Of a stretch of DNA of 64,000 nt, positions 19,794 through 62,335 are shown in pieces. Numbering within the stretch: position 1 is the stretch's first letter; every line of letters starts with the position of its first letter. This DNA comes from Candidatus Heimdallarchaeota archaeon (GTDB taxonomy: Archaea; Asgardarchaeota; Heimdallarchaeia; Hodarchaeales; Hodarchaeaceae), in NCBI GenBank assembly GCA_011364965.1, contig RDOB01000007.1:62335-126334 (forward strand), in the 5' to 3' direction. The position numbers were made by a program, and so were the translations under genes. The notes below the pieces were generated by a model. The model had not been told where the DNA came from and did no database searches. It saw nothing but the letters and a program-made list of their open reading frames with translations.

Positions 19794-21044
19794 ATGAATT
19801 TAAGCGGAGTTCCTTACCCAATGGACGAAAAAAATTCCTCTAATCAACATGATGAACCCAATAAAGAACATCCTGTTGAAAAAAGGATTGATGACGACGA
19901 TCGTTTTGATGAAATGGAGGAATTCGCCCTAAAGGTTCGAGTTGAGCTTGAGGATGCGTTAACAGGACGGGATGACTATTTACATCTCCTAGAGGATGTT
20001 TATGACCTTTCTGACAAAATGCCTAAAAAATATCGGGATGAATTTCATCGTTTTCGTTTGTTGAGTGCGGAGAACACTGAAGAAATTCATATGATCTCCT
20101 GCTTTTTAAGCAGTGGAAAACCATTATTTGATTACTCTGTGTCAGAAAAAGTGGATCCTGAGAAATCTCATGGACTAATATTGAATGCGATTAAAAACTA
20201 TGTTCGTTATAAGCTAGGTGAATTGTTAGAAATTCTCACATTAGAAACATATTCAATTCACCTGTTTCTTGCAGAAAAAACATATATAATAAGCATTATT
20301 ACCTCCAAAAATCTCCCTCGAGATAAAATTGCCCCGCTTGCAATCCAAATGGCTCGAACATTGAAGTATTATCCTAATGAAACACCTTATACCAATAAAG
20401 AATTAAAAGGCGATTTGGATCGTGCAATTAGCGCAACAATTAGTACACTTGTCAAAGAACAACACACGCTAAAGATTATCTTAATTGGTGATGGAGCGGT
20501 TGGAAAAACTTCAATCAGACGTAGATATCTTGGCGAGGGGTTTAAAGATGATTACCAGATGACCATTGGAGCAGATTTAGCAGCAAAAGCTGCACCAACC
20601 ATTTATGCCGGCGGAAAACAAATCAAATATTTAATTTGGGATCTTGCGGGGCAACCTCGATTCAATCACGTCAGAAAAGCTTACTACATGTCTGCAGTTG
20701 GCGCCTTGGTTGTTTTTGATATAACTCGACCCGAAAGTTTTCAGAACATAGTAACCTGGATGAACGAACTATGGAGACATAACGGACGAGGTCCAGTACC
20801 ATTAGTTGTTTTGGGTAATAAAACGGATTTATGCGAACAAGGTCTCACCTGTGTGCCAGAGGAAAAAGCTTTTACGTTTATTAGGCGTTTATCAGATCTC
20901 TCACATAAATATAAGGGTTTCAAGATTCATTTTCTACCCACAAGCGCAAAGACTGGATTGAATATAGATAAAGCCTTTGAACTGCTTGGAGAAGCTATTA
21001 TGGACTTCTTAGGGTCAAGTAAAAACTCAAGAAAACAAATCTAA
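19794..21044 (+). CDS. Rab-like small GTPase fused to an N-terminal longin/roadblock-like domain
   Basis: C-terminal GDGAVGKT, TIGAD, WDLAGQ, GNKTD, TSAK; middle region SSGKPLF...TYSIHLF...IISIIT has a profilin/longin-like pattern. Confidence 0.85.
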   Translation: MNLSGVPYPMDEKNSSNQHDEPNKEHPVEKRIDDDDRFDEMEEFALKVRVELEDALTGRDDYLHLLEDVYDLSDKMPKKYRDEFHRFRLLSAENTEEIHMISCFLSSGKPLFDYSVSEKVDPEKSHGLILNAIKNYVRYKLGELLEILTLETYSIHLFLAEKTYIISIITSKNLPRDKIAPLAIQMARTLKYYPNETPYTNKELKGDLDRAISATISTLVKEQHTLKIILIGDGAVGKTSIRRRYLGEGFKDDYQMTIGADLAAKAAPTIYAGGKQIKYLIWDLAGQPRFNHVRKAYYMSAVGALVVFDITRPESFQNIVTWMNELWRHNGRGPVPLVVLGNKTDLCEQGLTCVPEEKAFTFIRRLSDLSHKYKGFKIHFLPTSAKTGLNIDKAFELLGEAIMDFLGSSKNSRKQI

Positions 21045-21133: not shown

Positions 21134-21922
21134 ATGTATTCACAAAAAATACTATGTGAATCCGAACATTGGTGCAAAAAAATGGATCGAGATTTTATTT
21201 TAGCCCGAGAAGCACAACTAGTCTACTCTAATTCTGCTGCTTCTGGCTTTAACCCTGTAGGAGACTCATTAGAAAAATGGCAAGGAACATTAACTTATAC
21301 AACGAATCGTGGGCGTAATATGTTCACATTTGAGATATTCTTACCTGAATATTTTCCTAATGTTCCTCCTGTTGCTACTGCTATTGGATTTATGGATCAT
21401 CCCAACATAGATAATGATGGATTTGTGCAATTACGGATTCTAGATAATTGGAGAGCGGAGTTTCATCTTTATCAGGTAATTATTGCCTTAAAAAACCTCA
21501 TGTCTAGAGTTCCTCCAACTCCGAGAGGTCAAACTGCCAAAACAGCAAGAGATGTTGTCTCAAGAATTACCCAAGCTCCTCCACAGCAGGAACCAGTACA
21601 AGCACGAAGTGAAGCAGAAAGTACGGCTCTTCGAATGGAACTTACTGCTATAAATCAGCAACTTAGAGAAAAAGAAGAAGAGATTGCCAGATTACGTGCG
21701 CGACAAGTAATTCATTCCGAACCTTCTTCTACTAGTCGTCCCCACCTTTCTGCTGTCGAAGAGCTTGAATCTGAAAAAATTGCAACCTCAGATCTACTAG
21801 CTGCACTAGAAGATCGTTATGCTAGCGGAGAAATTTCAATTTTTGAATATTCTAGATTGTATAAAAAATATTCCAAAGAATTATACGTATTGAAAAAAGA
21901 ACTTGAGTATCTTGGAAGGTAA
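21134..21922 (+). CDS. vps23: ESCRT-I Vps23/TSG101-like (UEV, coiled coil, steadiness box)
   Basis: FPNVPP...HPNIDNDGFVQL (UBC fold without catalytic Cys), Pro/Gln linker, coiled coil, GEISIFEY helical hairpin. Confidence 0.85.
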   Translation: MYSQKILCESEHWCKKMDRDFILAREAQLVYSNSAASGFNPVGDSLEKWQGTLTYTTNRGRNMFTFEIFLPEYFPNVPPVATAIGFMDHPNIDNDGFVQLRILDNWRAEFHLYQVIIALKNLMSRVPPTPRGQTAKTARDVVSRITQAPPQQEPVQARSEAESTALRMELTAINQQLREKEEEIARLRARQVIHSEPSSTSRPHLSAVEELESEKIATSDLLAALEDRYASGEISIFEYSRLYKKYSKELYVLKKELEYLGR

Positions 21923-21928
21923 TATTCA

Positions 21929-22549
21929 ATGAGTTTCCCAGAAAATCTGTCAAAACAATGGACCCTCGAAGGACAGCTCTATGCCTGCATAGGTACATTA
22001 GATTTACTTTCACGTACTTTTGAAAAAGGAGAACTCGACCCGAATATTTTTCATAAACAGCATAAAAACTTACTTACGAGTATTGTTGCCACTCGTTCAG
22101 CTTTATCTGAATATCATTTTGATCTTGACGATTTTATAGAAAAAGAGAATCTACAGCAGCTTTATCCCCTTGGATTAGAAAAATTACGGAAAACTGAAGG
22201 AACCGATGATAATAGTAGAAATCAAATTGATTATTCGCAAATCAAACGCTTACCTGCATTTGCAGCAGAATTTGTAGCAAATGCGATAGAATTGCTTGAT
22301 TTACTGAAACTTGAAGCAATTGCCACAGTAGATCGCATTCTTCCATATCTTGATGAATTATTTGCCATTTTATCTCAAATATCAGTATATGGAAACTCAC
22401 ATTGGGTAAGTCAAGATATTAATCAATGGATTGAGTGGATGGATAGAAAAAAACCTGGTATTTTACTTAAGGAAGATGATCTGAAAAAACTTGAACTTCA
22501 AGTTGCAAGATGGCTCTCTGATTTCAGACGTGAATTAAATAATCTTTAA
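21929..22549 (+). CDS. vps28: ESCRT-I Vps28-like protein
   Basis: LYACIGTLDLL...GELD N-terminal hairpin; AEFVANAIELLDLLKL...ILPYLDEL four-helix CTD; follows vps23. Confidence 0.85.
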   Translation: MSFPENLSKQWTLEGQLYACIGTLDLLSRTFEKGELDPNIFHKQHKNLLTSIVATRSALSEYHFDLDDFIEKENLQQLYPLGLEKLRKTEGTDDNSRNQIDYSQIKRLPAFAAEFVANAIELLDLLKLEAIATVDRILPYLDELFAILSQISVYGNSHWVSQDINQWIEWMDRKKPGILLKEDDLKKLELQVARWLSDFRRELNNL

Positions 22550-22565: not shown

Positions 22566-24020
22566 CTAATTAAGTAAGTTTGTTTTTCCAGTTCTAATAA
22601 GAAGTTCAGTAATTGCCTCATTAATTTTAGCTAATTCTAATTCAAATTCTTTGATGAGCTCAAAATAATCTCGACTAGCAACTTTCTTCCGTCCTTCTTT
22701 TAGCTCTTGAAGTGCTCTTTCGTTCGCCAGTTTTCGAATTCTTAGGTCTCGGAGTCTATCATCAAGAACCCCAGTTACAAAATCTGGTTCTTCTTTCATC
22801 TGTGAGCTGGAATCCTTCTTACTCTTCCCATCATTCATTTCTGATTGGAAATTAATAGCGGAGAGAATTTTTTCTTGAAAAATTTCGGAAGACCAATCTC
22901 GGAATGGTTCATGTACATAAATATCACTCGGACGACCATAATAGGCTAATTGAAGAGCATCAAAAATCCGCATGAGGGTTTTATGGTCAGATCTAAGTTC
23001 ATAATCATGTTTAATCGTAGTGATTTGTAAAGTATCCCTTTTAATGAATCCTGAGGTAGCTTTCTTTTGAACATCGATCAGATCTTCAGGGGGAAATTCA
23101 TCGTATATCACGGCTTTTTGTCCAACAATATTCGTTCTTTTCTTTTGAAACATAACAATACGATCTGTTGTAATTGATAGATCAATGGGTGTTTTTCTAA
23201 TGCGACCATTATGCAATTCAATCCCTGAAAAGAATCCTATACCCAATTCACCTGGAATGAAGAAAAAAATGTCGAAGTAACGGCCTAATTCTTTAGCCAT
23301 CTGGTCAAATTCATCACATTTTGTTTCAAGAAGGTTAATCATTTCATGAATAGGTTCCAGTTTATTCAAAACGGTCTGATCAAAGCTAGTGACCTGTTTT
23401 TGGAATAATGAAATTTGAAGTGACAGATTTCGATGATCAGTGAAGGCCTCCTCCAGTCCCATAACACTTCGGTATAATCGTTTAAGCTTAGCTGCGAATT
23501 CTAGGAACTCAGTTAGAACAAAGCTTTCAATTTTTTTGGTCTCAAGAAATATCTGATCAATTTCATTTCTTGGATTTAGGAATTGTTTCTTGTATTCCTT
23601 TAATCGTGTATCAAGATGCCCTGTCCGTTTAAGTGCAAGAACTGGCCGATATCCAACCTGTTTCAATGATTTTTTTAATTCAAAAATAACTTCCACAGCT
23701 TCAGCTTTCGGTCCATTTTCTATTGGAGAAGGTTCTATTTCACTAGAACCACATGGACATTTAAGTCCCCTGCCATTAATTTCTAAATGGGACGCACATT
23801 TCTGACAGAAGGAAGCTCCGCATCGTACGCACTTCTGGGAATCAGATTGACGAATCATAGAACCGCAAAAAGAGCAGTAAAGAGATATAATTTCAGTGAC
23901 CAATCTCATCATCACGTGAGTCCCAGTATGAATAATCCTAACTTTGTTATTTTTAAGCATACAAATTCTTGTCATGATATGACGAGATACAAATTGGATG
24001 AGTAATGTCAGAATTAACAA
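22566..24020 (-). CDS. FYVE-like Zn finger / coiled coil / PH-like / steadiness-box-like protein (start probably downstream of the called one)
   Basis: CxxC-x11-CxxC-x4-CxxC-x12-CxC; LSITTDRIVMF PH/GRAM-like region; C-terminal hairpin resembling that of the neighbouring Vps23. Confidence 0.6.
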   Translation of the reverse strand: MLILTLLIQFVSRHIMTRICMLKNNKVRIIHTGTHVMMRLVTEIISLYCSFCGSMIRQSDSQKCVRCGASFCQKCASHLEINGRGLKCPCGSSEIEPSPIENGPKAEAVEVIFELKKSLKQVGYRPVLALKRTGHLDTRLKEYKKQFLNPRNEIDQIFLETKKIESFVLTEFLEFAAKLKRLYRSVMGLEEAFTDHRNLSLQISLFQKQVTSFDQTVLNKLEPIHEMINLLETKCDEFDQMAKELGRYFDIFFFIPGELGIGFFSGIELHNGRIRKTPIDLSITTDRIVMFQKKRTNIVGQKAVIYDEFPPEDLIDVQKKATSGFIKRDTLQITTIKHDYELRSDHKTLMRIFDALQLAYYGRPSDIYVHEPFRDWSSEIFQEKILSAINFQSEMNDGKSKKDSSSQMKEEPDFVTGVLDDRLRDLRIRKLANERALQELKEGRKKVASRDYFELIKEFELELAKINEAITELLIRTGKTNLLN

Positions 24021-24186
24021 AAGCTCTATAAAATTAAATGAATTACAGGAAAGCTCCCTTAAGATGGTTATTTGACTCCAAATTAGAATGAGAACTGATA
24101 TTAGGTATCGAATTCTAAAGGATTATAAATTCAATCGAATATACTTCGTTTGAGATTTATCTCTATTCAATAGGATAGCTTGTAAT

Positions 24187-24903
24187 ATGGGATTACGGAA
24201 TATTGAAGACAAACTCAGTCGAGAGGCCGAGATGAAACGAAAAGGAGCAGAATTGGCAATTAAATCCCTAGAAGAGATGAGTAAAAAGGTTCAAAACCTC
24301 CATAGAGATTTAGAAAAATTAGAAAATAAATTTGAGGCTGATTTTAAAAAGAATCCAGAACTAGCTCAACATCTTATGTCTATTAGGGAAGAGCTGGGAT
24401 TACCTCTATCCATCGGACTCTATGAAGTTGGGCCCAAACCTAGTTTTAAAGATCGGCTGACAGGGAAGGATGAGTTCCATAATTATCTAGCTCTTCGTAT
24501 TCTGGAAATAGGTAATAAGCTTAGAACGAAAACTGGAGGAATTGTTAGCGCTTCAGAGTTAATTTTGCGAATAAATGAAGAAAATAAGGGAATAACAATA
24601 GGAATTTCGGATCTCATGAAATCCCTAGACCTTTTGAAGCAAAATGGAATGATCCATTCTATTCGTGAATATTCAGGATTAAGAGTAATTGAATTTATAG
24701 ATCCGAATCTTTCAGATGATCACCATAAATTATTAGAAATCGGTGCTCGCTTCCGTGGAGAAATAAGTTTAACTGATTTGATAAGAGAATCAGGGTGGTC
24801 TCTAGAGCGAATAAACCAATCCATCAATAGTTTAATAAACCAGAAAATCGCTGTGAAGTCGGAAACCCTTGATGGAATTATTATTTCATTCCCTGGCCTT
24901 TAA
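24187..24903 (+). CDS. vps22: ESCRT-II Vps22/EAP30-like protein
   Basis: N-terminal coiled coil, FHNYLALRILEI...TGGIV, tandem winged helices (GWSLER). Confidence 0.85.
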   Translation: MGLRNIEDKLSREAEMKRKGAELAIKSLEEMSKKVQNLHRDLEKLENKFEADFKKNPELAQHLMSIREELGLPLSIGLYEVGPKPSFKDRLTGKDEFHNYLALRILEIGNKLRTKTGGIVSASELILRINEENKGITIGISDLMKSLDLLKQNGMIHSIREYSGLRVIEFIDPNLSDDHHKLLEIGARFRGEISLTDLIRESGWSLERINQSINSLINQKIAVKSETLDGIIISFPGL

Positions 24904-27683: not shown

Positions 27684-28463
27684 ATGGCTGAAGTCCAACG
27701 TGAAAGAAAAAAGAAAAAAACCAAGGAAAAAACATCAGAAACAGTCGATACTCTTGCAGCAATATTGGATGAGGTCACAAAACCCGAGGAACCTAAATTT
27801 GAGCCAGATTTAACAAAAATCCAGCAAAAAATAATCCATTCATCCCAATCTAGCCAAAATAAACAGATTTCTCTCCCAGAAATTTCTATTCAAGTTTCTT
27901 CTGAAAAAGAGGAAATGGAATCTCAACTTGTCCCTGGAAAGGTTGATGTTCGAATAAAACCTATACTTCCCTCATGGGTACAAAAACCTTGGAGATGGAT
28001 GGTACCTGAAGAACCTAATTTGAAACAGCAGTGGCTTTTAACTTGGGGGGAATTTATTTTAGACTTTTCGCGAGTCCTCAATCTCCATATAATTGATTTA
28101 CAGGAGATCAGCCTTGTATATCCATTCCAAAATCAGATTCTGAATAAAAAACTTACGCTTCCCCAGTTGATAATGATTTCTGATCATTTAATCGAAATTG
28201 AGAAAGCAAAATGGTGGGATTCGGAAAAAACCCGTCTTCGTGTCTATTGGAAGACCTTAAATTCATTTGCAGATGATTTATTTGAATTCGCGTTTCAGAA
28301 TGGTTATGATATGGTAACTGCCTATGATATAGTCAAGATGAATCAATCGTGGTCAGATTTGCCTCCTTCTGATGTACGGGTACTTATGCGATTATTAGTT
28401 GAGTTGAAACGTGCCTCTTGGGCCGACTCAGATAAGAAAACCATTCAATTTCATTATGAGTAA
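27684..28463 (+). CDS. vps25: ESCRT-II Vps25-like protein with low-complexity N-terminal extension
   Basis: QQWLLTWGEFIL, PFQNQILNKKL, KAKW...RVYWKT tandem wH pattern. Confidence 0.82.
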   Translation: MAEVQRERKKKKTKEKTSETVDTLAAILDEVTKPEEPKFEPDLTKIQQKIIHSSQSSQNKQISLPEISIQVSSEKEEMESQLVPGKVDVRIKPILPSWVQKPWRWMVPEEPNLKQQWLLTWGEFILDFSRVLNLHIIDLQEISLVYPFQNQILNKKLTLPQLIMISDHLIEIEKAKWWDSEKTRLRVYWKTLNSFADDLFEFAFQNGYDMVTAYDIVKMNQSWSDLPPSDVRVLMRLLVELKRASWADSDKKTIQFHYE

Positions 28464-61927: not shown

Positions 61928-62335
61928 TTGATGATAAATATGGTCCCTGTAGAACCAGATGATTCAGAATTTGTAACAATAGTTTATTTTCATAAAAATT
62001 CTTCCATTAAAGATGGATTAATTATGAGAAATGAAGTTAAATTAAAGGAGTGGATTTTAGAAGAGAATATTTCTCAATATTTACAATTTAAGCCCGAATT
62101 TTTCATTAGTTTTCATAATTGGATTGATTCTACAAATTCATTTGAAAAAATTCACAATTTTTTATTAGAACAGGTTAATGCTTTAAAACAGATGGAAAAA
62201 TGGCGTAATCAAGGTGATCTTATTGTTACGCACATTGAAGAAAGACCTAGTATGATTTTCTTTGATGTATCTCCAAGGATCTTTAAGAAAGTCTTACATT
62301 CTAAAGGGATCGCTTTCTCTGTAAAAGAAGAATAA
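61928..62335 (+). CDS. Hypothetical protein
   Basis: 135-aa ORF, no recognisable motif. Confidence 0.5.
   Translation: MMINMVPVEPDDSEFVTIVYFHKNSSIKDGLIMRNEVKLKEWILEENISQYLQFKPEFFISFHNWIDSTNSFEKIHNFLLEQVNALKQMEKWRNQGDLIVTHIEERPSMIFFDVSPRIFKKVLHSKGIAFSVKEE

Follow-up and report, generated by a model that had tools for sequence, protein, structure and literature searches.

Eukaryotic ESCRT-I (ESCRT, endosomal sorting complexes that are required for transport) requires three hairpins, which are contributed by Vps23, Vps28 and Vps37, and Hodarchaeales have been proposed as the sister group of eukaryotes. A 64,000-nucleotide stretch of a Hodarchaeales genome (Candidatus Heimdallarchaeota archaeon, assembly GCA_011364965.1, contig RDOB01000007.1, forward-strand positions 62,335 to 126,334; hereafter the window) contains a textbook Asgard ubiquitin-ESCRT locus, in which one gene runs antisense between vps28 and vps22. 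What does this gene encode, and how might its product relate to the ESCRT proteins around it? An earlier interpretation of the bare letters (the sequence-only reading) had proposed a Vps37-like or ESCRT-0-like membrane-targeting adaptor, composed of a FYVE-like zinc finger, a PH-like region and a steadiness-box-like hairpin.

Four observations bear on this question: a four-part protein architecture, end-to-end homology to an Asgard protein family, homology of the family's hairpin to steadiness boxes, and a strict placement in the ubiquitin-ESCRT locus. The protein is a divergent Hodarchaeales member of the Znr_CC_PH_SB family, and we consider it probable, though by no means certain, that it acts as an ESCRT-I-associated membrane adaptor. 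This idea is not new, as it coincides with the proposals of Hatano 2022 (PMC9192718) and Makarova 2024 (PMC10936438). Added here is that Hodarchaeales do carry the protein, in a diverged version with two zinc sites that is easily missed, that in all the Hodarchaeales species examined its gene keeps its place between vps28 and vps22, and that its resemblance to FYVE domains is unspecific. The value of these results lies in annotation and in the choice of constructs for biochemistry; they do not describe a new kind of system.

The gene and its conservation in Hodarchaeales

The antisense open reading frame (ORF) reported in the sequence-only reading at 22566-24020 is present, and Pfam confirms the identity of its neighbours. 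The frame lies on the minus strand and reaches up to a TTG at 24020; besides ATG 23912, possible starts within it are GTG 23915, ATG 23960 and TTG 24020, and the public gene call uses ATG 23960 to give a protein of 464 aa. Because the aligned N-termini of 28 homologues begin approximately 10 residues ahead of the first CxxC pair, ATG 23912 or GTG 23915 is the likely start (448-449 aa), while TTG 24020 is probably too far upstream. All residue numbers below refer to the coding sequence 22566..23912 (-), 448 aa plus stop, which was defined from the ORF list, its translation and these 28 N-termini.

Searches with the whole protein returned no Pfam match at E<=0.1 and none in NCBIfam. Some 50 near-full-length homologues were recovered at 49-71% identity from Hodarchaeales metagenome bins, and the window's own genome holds a single copy of the gene. 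Synteny was assessed in one genome per species, which yielded 20 loci beyond the window. Loci cut by contig ends apart, the gene is convergent to vps28 and divergent from vps22 in 20 of 20 species, and the order Vps23, Vps28, antisense gene, Vps22, Snf7, Snf7, Vps4, Vps25 is unchanged throughout, forming part of a common 12-gene order. The ESCRT-I/II placement that the sequence-only reading had put forward for checking is therefore strict across Hodarchaeales. Within these loci the antisense product is less conserved (45-70% identity) than Vps28 (66-77%) or Vps4 (80-85%), and on these identities the gene is evolving faster than its neighbours. It is a real, conserved gene.

Membership of an Asgard protein family

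To which proteins outside Hodarchaeales is it related? When an alignment of 29 Hodarchaeales sequences was compared by hhalign with an alignment of 11 family sequences from other lineages (among them Thorarchaeota locus L055; L numbers denote loci in our collection), the probability was 99.5% (E 1e-22); the match covers 416 columns, starting at the first CxxC and reaching the hairpin's end. A Hodarchaeales-centred profile likewise matches ORFs of about 500 aa elsewhere among the Asgard lineages, the best of them at E 2.7e-25, and the ESM Atlas neighbours of the protein are Asgard clusters of 519-698 aa. The distant full-length relatives, gathered by exhaustive HMMER searches, genome scans and fetched loci, are approximately 470-530 aa long; they begin with three zinc ribbons, continue with helices and a PH domain, and end in a clear steadiness box. 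With a profile built from non-Hodarchaeales members, the family was detected in 274 of the 301 Asgard genomes that were sampled, representing 67 of 70 genera, counts in which some matches near E 1e-7 may cover the zinc ribbon or the hairpin alone. Hodarchaeales stand out as the exception: at E<=1e-6 this profile is passed by 11 of the 20 genomes of the window's genus, and the window's own genome fails it.

The family has been described twice, and its published description gives it three N-terminal zinc ribbons. Makarova 2024 (PMC10936438) named it Znr_CC_PH_SB (asCOG cog.011556), judged it to be Asgard-specific and probably ancestral, and regarded it as a likely component of ESCRT-I that its PH domain would place at the membrane. 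Hatano 2022 (PMC9192718) called it the 'freestanding steadiness box protein' and drew it as RING-CC-PH-SB, and the legend to Supplementary Fig. 8 of that study lists RING finger, coiled-coil and PH among the domains drawn for Asgard ESCRT-I-like proteins. In yeast two-hybrid assays from the same work the Loki and Thor steadiness-box proteins bound Vps28, and the Loki protein also bound Vps22; Asgard archaea were reported to lack Vps37. Judged by eye, ThorAB25_08990|SB from the Supplementary Data of Hatano 2022 is the orthologue of the gene at our Thorarchaeota locus L055.

On these alignments the window protein is orthologous to the Asgard steadiness-box protein, of which it is the Hodarchaeales version, divergent and with two zinc sites. 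It shares with other Znr_CC_PH_SB proteins, such as ThorAB25_08990 and the 650-aa Lokiarchaeum GC14_75 protein, the succession of zinc module, helices, PH domain and steadiness box, a position in an ESCRT gene neighbourhood, and the role proposed for them as ESCRT-I-associated membrane adaptors. It differs from them in length (about 448 aa against about 500-730 aa), in having two zinc sites rather than three, in a hairpin that is the most diverged of the family, and in a gene that stands between vps28 and vps22 and not beside ESCRT-III genes. Profile detection of the Hodarchaeales form is weak, and among the rows listed in the neighbourhood table of Makarova 2024 no ESCRT-locus gene of Heimdall LC_3 (Hodarchaeota) appears under cog.011556; for these reasons, this form may have been missed before.

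Outside Hodarchaeales, 10 of 14 distant members adjoin ESCRT-III/Vps4 genes, as exemplified by loci L053 and L069, where the order is E1, Vps23, Vps28, Vps22, Vps25, Vps4, Snf7, Snf7 and the family gene. A different arrangement is found in one Heimdallarchaeia family, in which all four genomes examined have the gene flanked by GTPase genes, a divergent one for a Rab-like GTPase on one side and, downstream, one for a 187-aa MglA-like GTPase (L054 1438-3644; L057 8748-13003; L067 4838-7907; L068 5173-8242), and in a further Heimdallarchaeia family a Rab-like GTPase gene directly follows it (L061 9171-11591). No ESCRT genes were found near the family gene in these five GTPase-associated loci. Counting all cases, the gene adjoins small-GTPase genes in three Heimdallarchaeia families, while most lineages have no GTPase neighbour. 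In L057 the Rab-like GTPase carries, as fusions, a long acidic tail and a zinc ribbon at its C-terminus.

Architecture of the protein

An AlphaFold2 model computed on the family alignment has a mean predicted local distance difference test (pLDDT) score of 77.5 and shows a protein that begins with a small zinc module at residues 10-60 and continues through long helices at 68-108, 114-150 and 160-210 to a PH-like sandwich, a short helix (343-358), a linker and a C-terminal hairpin. The three helices, which correspond to the 'CC' region of the family (23283..23711, minus strand), are modelled at pLDDT 80-95, and residues 68-200 superpose on the designed helical bundle 5j0l_A with a VIA Z of 11.0. 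In this region the columns R108-x2-F111-x2-P114-x4-D119 are invariant, and they are conserved family-wide. The best-conserved motif of the whole family lies here, at the junction of helices 1 and 2, and thus outside both the PH domain and the hairpin. It lies at window positions 23586-23618 (-), residues 99-109, has equivalents in L052-L064, and reads R-K-Q-F-L-x-P…D (R-x2-F-L-x-P) in Hodarchaeales and L-R-x3-F-L-H-x-P-x2-E elsewhere in the family. This junction may be a partner-binding site.

Between the PH-like domain and the hairpin, a segment with a short helix (22839..22910, minus strand; residues 335-358) holds R338, D339, W340, S342 and E343, which are invariant in the 29 Hodarchaeales sequences; distant relatives retain W340 as well. 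After this segment comes a variable, poorly conserved linker (22788..22838, minus strand; residues 359-375; pLDDT <50). Beyond the hairpin, the protein ends in a tail, TGKTNLL(N) (22569..22589, minus strand; residues 442-448), in which G442, K443 and N445 are invariant in the same 29 sequences.

Foldseek searches with the whole model returned DH-PH tandems (Ephexin4, Trio and Dbs) as top matches at E ~5e-6. A RhoGEF of DH-PH type was considered for this reason and set aside as improbable: the superpositions have root-mean-square deviations (rmsd) of 8-20 A and TM-scores of 0.2-0.36, the helical part is a plain three-helix bundle that fits designed bundles equally well, and no RhoGEF Pfam signal was found in the protein. 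The similarity is driven by the PH domain together with generic long helices.

The C-terminal hairpin

The C-terminal helical hairpin (22590..22784, minus strand; residues 377-441) is modelled as helices 377-406 and 414-441. The sequence-only reading had called it steadiness-box-like from a parallel with the C-terminus of the neighbouring Vps23. Both of the peptides it quoted are found in the translations and the steadiness-box character is borne out by the family profile, but the pairwise parallel to the local Vps23 does not rise above chance: BLASTP of the two hairpins had no match at E<=100, and the probability was 0.5% when hhalign was run on Hodarchaeales sequences only.

A profile of 17 family C-termini (four from Hodarchaeales and 13 from other lineages) gave a different result. 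Its top four matches in the PDB are all steadiness boxes, from yeast Vps23 (2p22_A at 1.1e-4, then 2f66_A and 2caz_A, to 2e-3) and human TSG101 (6vme_B, 3e-3), and the match spans approximately 56 residues including the central G-x-I...Y/F turn. Seven of the 17 members reach Pfam Vps23_core (best E 3.7e-7) and four reach Pfam CdvA (best E 2.6e-4). When the non-Hodarchaeales hairpins were compared with the ESCRT proteins of the window by hhalign, the probability was 93.6% (E 2e-7) for the C-terminus of the local Vps23 and 72.6% for the N-terminal hairpin of the local Vps28, against 1% or less for Snf7, Vps22 and CC controls. The Hodarchaeales hairpin aligns in turn with the non-Hodarchaeales hairpin at 59.8% (E 9e-5) and in identical register. 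In the window's own 3-Mb genome, the best non-self match of the hairpin profile is again the Vps23 C-terminus at 21752-21919 (E 7.4e-6). On these profile comparisons the family hairpin is homologous to the steadiness boxes of Vps23 and TSG101, with a link that is significant only through the wider family profile.

A search of the window's genome (87% complete) for Vps37 (Mod_r, PF07200) gave no match over the cut-off, and nothing at the locus of the antisense gene. Since no Vps37 gene was found, a separate donor of the third hairpin is plausible. The label 'Vps37-like' itself is not supported, as the hairpin matches Vps23_core and not Mod_r, and lacks a stalk helix; where such a helix was sought upstream of the hairpin, the model has the PH domain, a short helix and the disordered linker 359-375 instead.

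Two further hairpins came to light in these searches. One other match of the profile in the genome, at E 0.014 (G000:C12:119518-119685; L066 5075-6943, minus strand), falls in a membrane protein of 622 aa that resembles Na+/H+ antiporters and carries in its cytoplasmic C-terminal tail the steadiness-box-like hairpin …LLNAREKGEISEAAYKRTKNRYTEELIDL…; as the product is a Na+/H+ antiporter, it was rejected as an ESCRT protein. The distant family member at L060 9456-10811 (+) ends in two tandem G-E-I-x-x-P-E-Y-M-R steadiness-box halves, an arrangement that resembles an internal duplication of the hairpin.

The zinc module

The N-terminal module (23733..23885, minus strand; residues 10-60) contains eight cysteines in four pairs (C13/C16, C28/C31, C36/C39 and C52/C54), which are conserved as such in the 29 Hodarchaeales sequences. 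In the window protein it reads ...RQSDSQKCVRCG... and ...LKCPCG.... The spacing, CxxC-x11-CxxCGxxFCxxC-x12-CxC, is compatible with a FYVE domain and equally with RING and B-box fingers. The FYVE motifs WxxD, R(R/K)HHCR and RVC are absent from the window protein and from the 29 homologues, and the residues ahead of the second pair are SDSQKC where a FYVE domain has R(R/K)HHC. The sequence-only reading was accurate in noting eight N-terminal cysteines lacking the RHHCR motif for phosphatidylinositol 3-phosphate; its term 'FYVE-like' is justified for the spacing only, which is not specific.

All Pfam models remain below their cut-offs on this module. FYVE has a cut-off of 27.8 bits and scores 10.4 (among 29 relatives, 20 have matches, all of them sub-threshold, best E 1e-3), and zf-RING_2 reaches 16 bits against 27.3, with the B-box, double zinc ribbon, FYVE and C1 models scoring much like RING. 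The best PDB matches of the module profile are RING fingers (TRIM2, 8ams_C, 3.2e-6; RNF4, 7.6e-6; RING1B, 2.4e-5), followed by B-box, PHD, FYVE and C1 domains at 1e-4 to 1e-2, including RUFY1 at 3e-3 and EEA1 at 7e-3; Cys-rich profiles are prone to compositional matches of this sort. With the single protein as query, the top phmmer match is the RING of TRIM23 (E 0.035). A separate AlphaFold2 model of residues 1-68 (pLDDT 71.6) gave no Foldseek match at E<=1e-3, and VIA, whose best score was Z 5.4 for a two-pocket zinc protein from an archaeon, placed RING, ZZ, B-box and zinc-ribbon proteins level with one another. Compared with the FYVE domains of EEA1 and Hrs/Vps27, the module thus shares the eight cysteines and their CxxC...CxxCGxxFCxxC...CxC arrangement and differs in the three missing motifs and in scoring higher with RING than with FYVE.

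The relatives outside Hodarchaeales carry two extra CxxC pairs between pairs 3 and 4, giving a third zinc site, and the four Hodarchaeales pairs align with pairs 1, 2, 3 and 6 of these three-site proteins. The middle ribbon is therefore missing in Hodarchaeales, which would leave two zinc sites instead of three. From its sequence and model, the module is best described as a putative generic two-zinc Cys finger, for which FYVE, RING, B-box, ZZ and double zinc ribbon are indistinguishable.

The PH-like domain

The PH/GRAM/GLUE-like region seen in the sequence-only reading is confirmed at residues ~208-330 by the fold of the model and by VIA Z values of 11-13.4. It comprises, according to DSSP, seven strands (224-308) followed by a capping helix (310-325), a PH-like beta-sandwich of GRAM/GLUE/bacterial-PH type (22923..23252, minus strand; residues 221-330). 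VIA-align superposed residues ~208-330 on the PH-GRAM domain of MTMR2 (1lw3_A; Z 13.4, rmsd 2.9, 111 aligned residues), on the EAP45 GLUE domain (2dx5_A; Z 11.2, rmsd 3.0) and on the GRAM-like domain of Lam6 (5yqr_A; Z 11.2). Many other PH domains, including those of Bcr, Exo84 and TAPP1, match at Z 11-12, and most structural matches lie within about 2 Z units of one another, so that no PH subtype stands out. Sequence comparisons leave a similar picture: among 19 relatives, sub-threshold Pfam matches were to bPH_3 in nine, GRAM in six and Vps36_ESCRT-II (GLUE) in four, and the only eukaryotic PDB match of the PH profile was the Vps36 GLUE domain at a non-significant E 0.18. The beta1-beta2 loop of the domain is basic and conserved (N-x-R-I-R-K, residues 235-240).

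A proposed role at the membrane and its alternatives

How might these parts work together? In our proposal, the C-terminal hairpin would pack on the steadiness-box hairpins of Vps28 and/or Vps23, tying the protein to ESCRT-I, where it may occupy the place taken by Vps37 in eukaryotes. The GRAM/GLUE-like PH domain would bind the membrane and hold the complex there, while the zinc module and the conserved helical region could bind something else again, be it ubiquitin or cargo, Vps22 or a small GTPase. In this way the protein would bring ESCRT-I/II into place on the membrane, a task that in yeast falls in a similar manner to the GLUE domain and zinc fingers of Vps36. The adaptor idea of the sequence-only reading is consistent with this as far as the PH domain, steadiness box and synteny are concerned; its FYVE-specific and Vps37-like elements are not retained. 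In a setting that lacks Vps37, ESCRT-0 and a Vps36 GLUE domain, the family, nearly universal in Asgard genomes, is the obvious candidate for completing archaeal ESCRT-I or anchoring it at membranes, as has already been published.

The comparison with eukaryotic ESCRT proteins is one of parts. With Vps23/TSG101 (2p22, 2f66, 2caz, 6vme) the protein shares, by family profile, the steadiness box of Vps23_core, but it has no UEV domain and no stalk helix, and taken alone it is not significant against Vps23_core. With Vps37 it would share a place, that of the non-UEV donor of a hairpin beside Vps23 and Vps28, whereas it lacks Mod_r similarity and stalk and contains zinc, helical and PH domains that Vps37 does not have. 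The N-terminus of yeast Vps36 (2cay, 2dx5) similarly combines a GRAM/GLUE-type PH-like domain with zinc fingers in an ESCRT protein; the Hodarchaeales protein differs in having no winged-helix ESCRT-II core, a zinc module that is N-terminal instead of inserted in the PH domain, and a hairpin of ESCRT-I type.

Several points weigh against this proposal. The Hodarchaeales hairpin alone matches neither Vps23_core nor any other Pfam family; it has diverged, with no significant direct similarity to the hairpins of its own Vps23 and Vps28, and it is not preceded by a stalk helix as in Vps23 and Vps37. The Odinarchaeota Vps23 dimer binds one Vps28 (Hatano 2022, PMC9192718), so that a three-hairpin headpiece needs no third gene. 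For the Hodarchaeales proteins the complex is hypothetical, the reported yeast two-hybrid interactions being those of the Loki and Thor proteins, and lipid binding by the PH domain is predicted from its fold alone. Finally, most lineages outside Hodarchaeales have the gene beside ESCRT-III/Vps4 and not beside vps23/vps28, and one Heimdallarchaeia family has it between two GTPase genes, away from ESCRT genes. Membership of the Hodarchaeales protein in the ESCRT-I headpiece is accordingly put forward as a putative role that it may have.

Another explanation, which we regard as unlikely although deserving of attention, is that the protein is a CdvA-like recruiter, a membrane adaptor that self-assembles or recruits ESCRT-III or ESCRT-II directly through its hairpin and helices and is no stoichiometric subunit of the headpiece, to which another Vps23 molecule would contribute the third hairpin. 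The four hairpins that match Pfam CdvA, the similarity between steadiness boxes and CdvA noted by Makarova 2024 (PMC10936438), the usual position of the gene by two Snf7 genes and Vps4 outside Hodarchaeales (L053, L056, L058, L069, L070), and, from Hatano 2022 (PMC9192718), both the Odinarchaeota stoichiometry and the interaction of the Loki protein with Vps22 all fit such a recruiter. It accounts less well for the best PDB matches of the hairpin profile, which are Vps23/TSG101, for hairpins that match the local Vps23 and Vps28 and not Snf7 or Vps22, and for the two-hybrid interaction with Vps28 in the same study; nor was any E3B-like or wH-binding peptide identified in the protein. The zinc module raises the separate prospect of a RING-type ubiquitin ligase (E3), in which an N-terminal cross-brace finger would dock the ubiquitin-conjugating enzyme (E2) of the locus and ubiquitylate ESCRT-I, for instance the steadiness box of Vps23, or cargo at the membrane. 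We hold this to be very improbable. It draws on the RING matches described above, on the RING finger named in the Supplementary Fig. 8 legend of Hatano 2022 (PMC9192718), on the presence of E1, ubiquitin, E2 and RING genes in the same locus, and on a 2023 preprint in which an Asgard Vps23 steadiness box is ubiquitylated by an E1/E2/RING cascade. Every Pfam RING model is sub-threshold, however, and other zinc-finger models score similarly; Cys-rich profiles readily give compositional matches; at E<=1e-3 no fold matches the model of the module, whose VIA Z peaks at only 5.4; and the locus already has a separate gene for a RING E3. The third ribbon inserted in the relatives also means that tandem ribbons fit better than a RING.

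Small GTPases supply the remaining alternatives. The helices and PH domain might serve the Rab/Arf-like GTPases encoded nearby in the manner of a DH-PH or effector module, making the protein an effector or exchange factor that links GTPase signalling to ESCRT recruitment. For this we see little chance, given that the DH-PH matches that top the Foldseek search superpose poorly, with no Pfam RhoGEF signal, that the helical part is a simple three-helix bundle, and that GTPase neighbours are missing in most lineages; what speaks for it is the leading place of DH-PH tandems in the Foldseek search, the Ras-family GTPase gene two genes upstream (19794-21044), and the GTPase-flanked loci of Heimdallarchaeia (four of four genomes in one family, a downstream Rab-like GTPase in another). 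An effector role could coexist with the ESCRT-I-associated adaptor that we favour. A broader version, which we rate as improbable, holds that in Heimdallarchaeia including Hodarchaeales the protein links small GTPases to ESCRT, or that its PH-plus-zinc module, whose gene stands head to head with vps22 in the archaea most closely related to eukaryotes, is the source of the GLUE/zinc-finger N-terminus of eukaryotic Vps36. Under the GTPase link, the module of PH domain and helices would recognise either a Rab/Arf/MglA-like GTPase or some lipid produced in the vicinity, and the hairpin would dock ESCRT-I/II at that site on the membrane. The GTPase neighbours in three Heimdallarchaeia families and the weak GLUE/GRAM signals of the PH domain are the basis for both ideas.

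The surrounding ESCRT locus

Beside the antisense gene's stop codon, 16 bp away, ends the convergent vps28 (21929..22549, plus strand; Pfam VPS28 7.2e-13), which follows the gene for UEV-Vps23 (21134..21922, plus strand; Pfam UQ_con/UEV), whose steadiness-box hairpin is encoded at 21752-21919. On the other side, an intergenic region (23913..24186) presumed to hold the promoters of both divergent genes separates it from vps22/EAP30 of ESCRT-II (24187..24903, plus strand; Pfam EAP30 5.2e-21). Further downstream are two Snf7 genes (25159 and 25824), Vps4 (26506) and Vps25 (27684-28463, plus strand; Pfam ESCRT-II 7e-15 over residues 113-221). The Vps25 homologue has a Lys/Glu-rich N-terminal extension of about 110 aa beyond the domain model.

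Upstream, the locus begins with E1 (16602), followed by genes for a zinc-ribbon membrane protein and a PAP2 phosphatase and then by the Ras/Rab-family GTPase gene (19794-21044, plus strand; Pfam Ras 9e-39), whose product carries an N-terminal extension of about 215 aa. This GTPase gene is directly upstream of vps23 in all Hodarchaeales loci. In the single metatranscriptome run with any part of the stretch, a library from soil or sediment, the one matching contig is 242 nt long and agrees at 100% identity with a portion of vps22 (24358-24598, plus strand); no RNA contig covers the antisense gene, which is uninformative either way.

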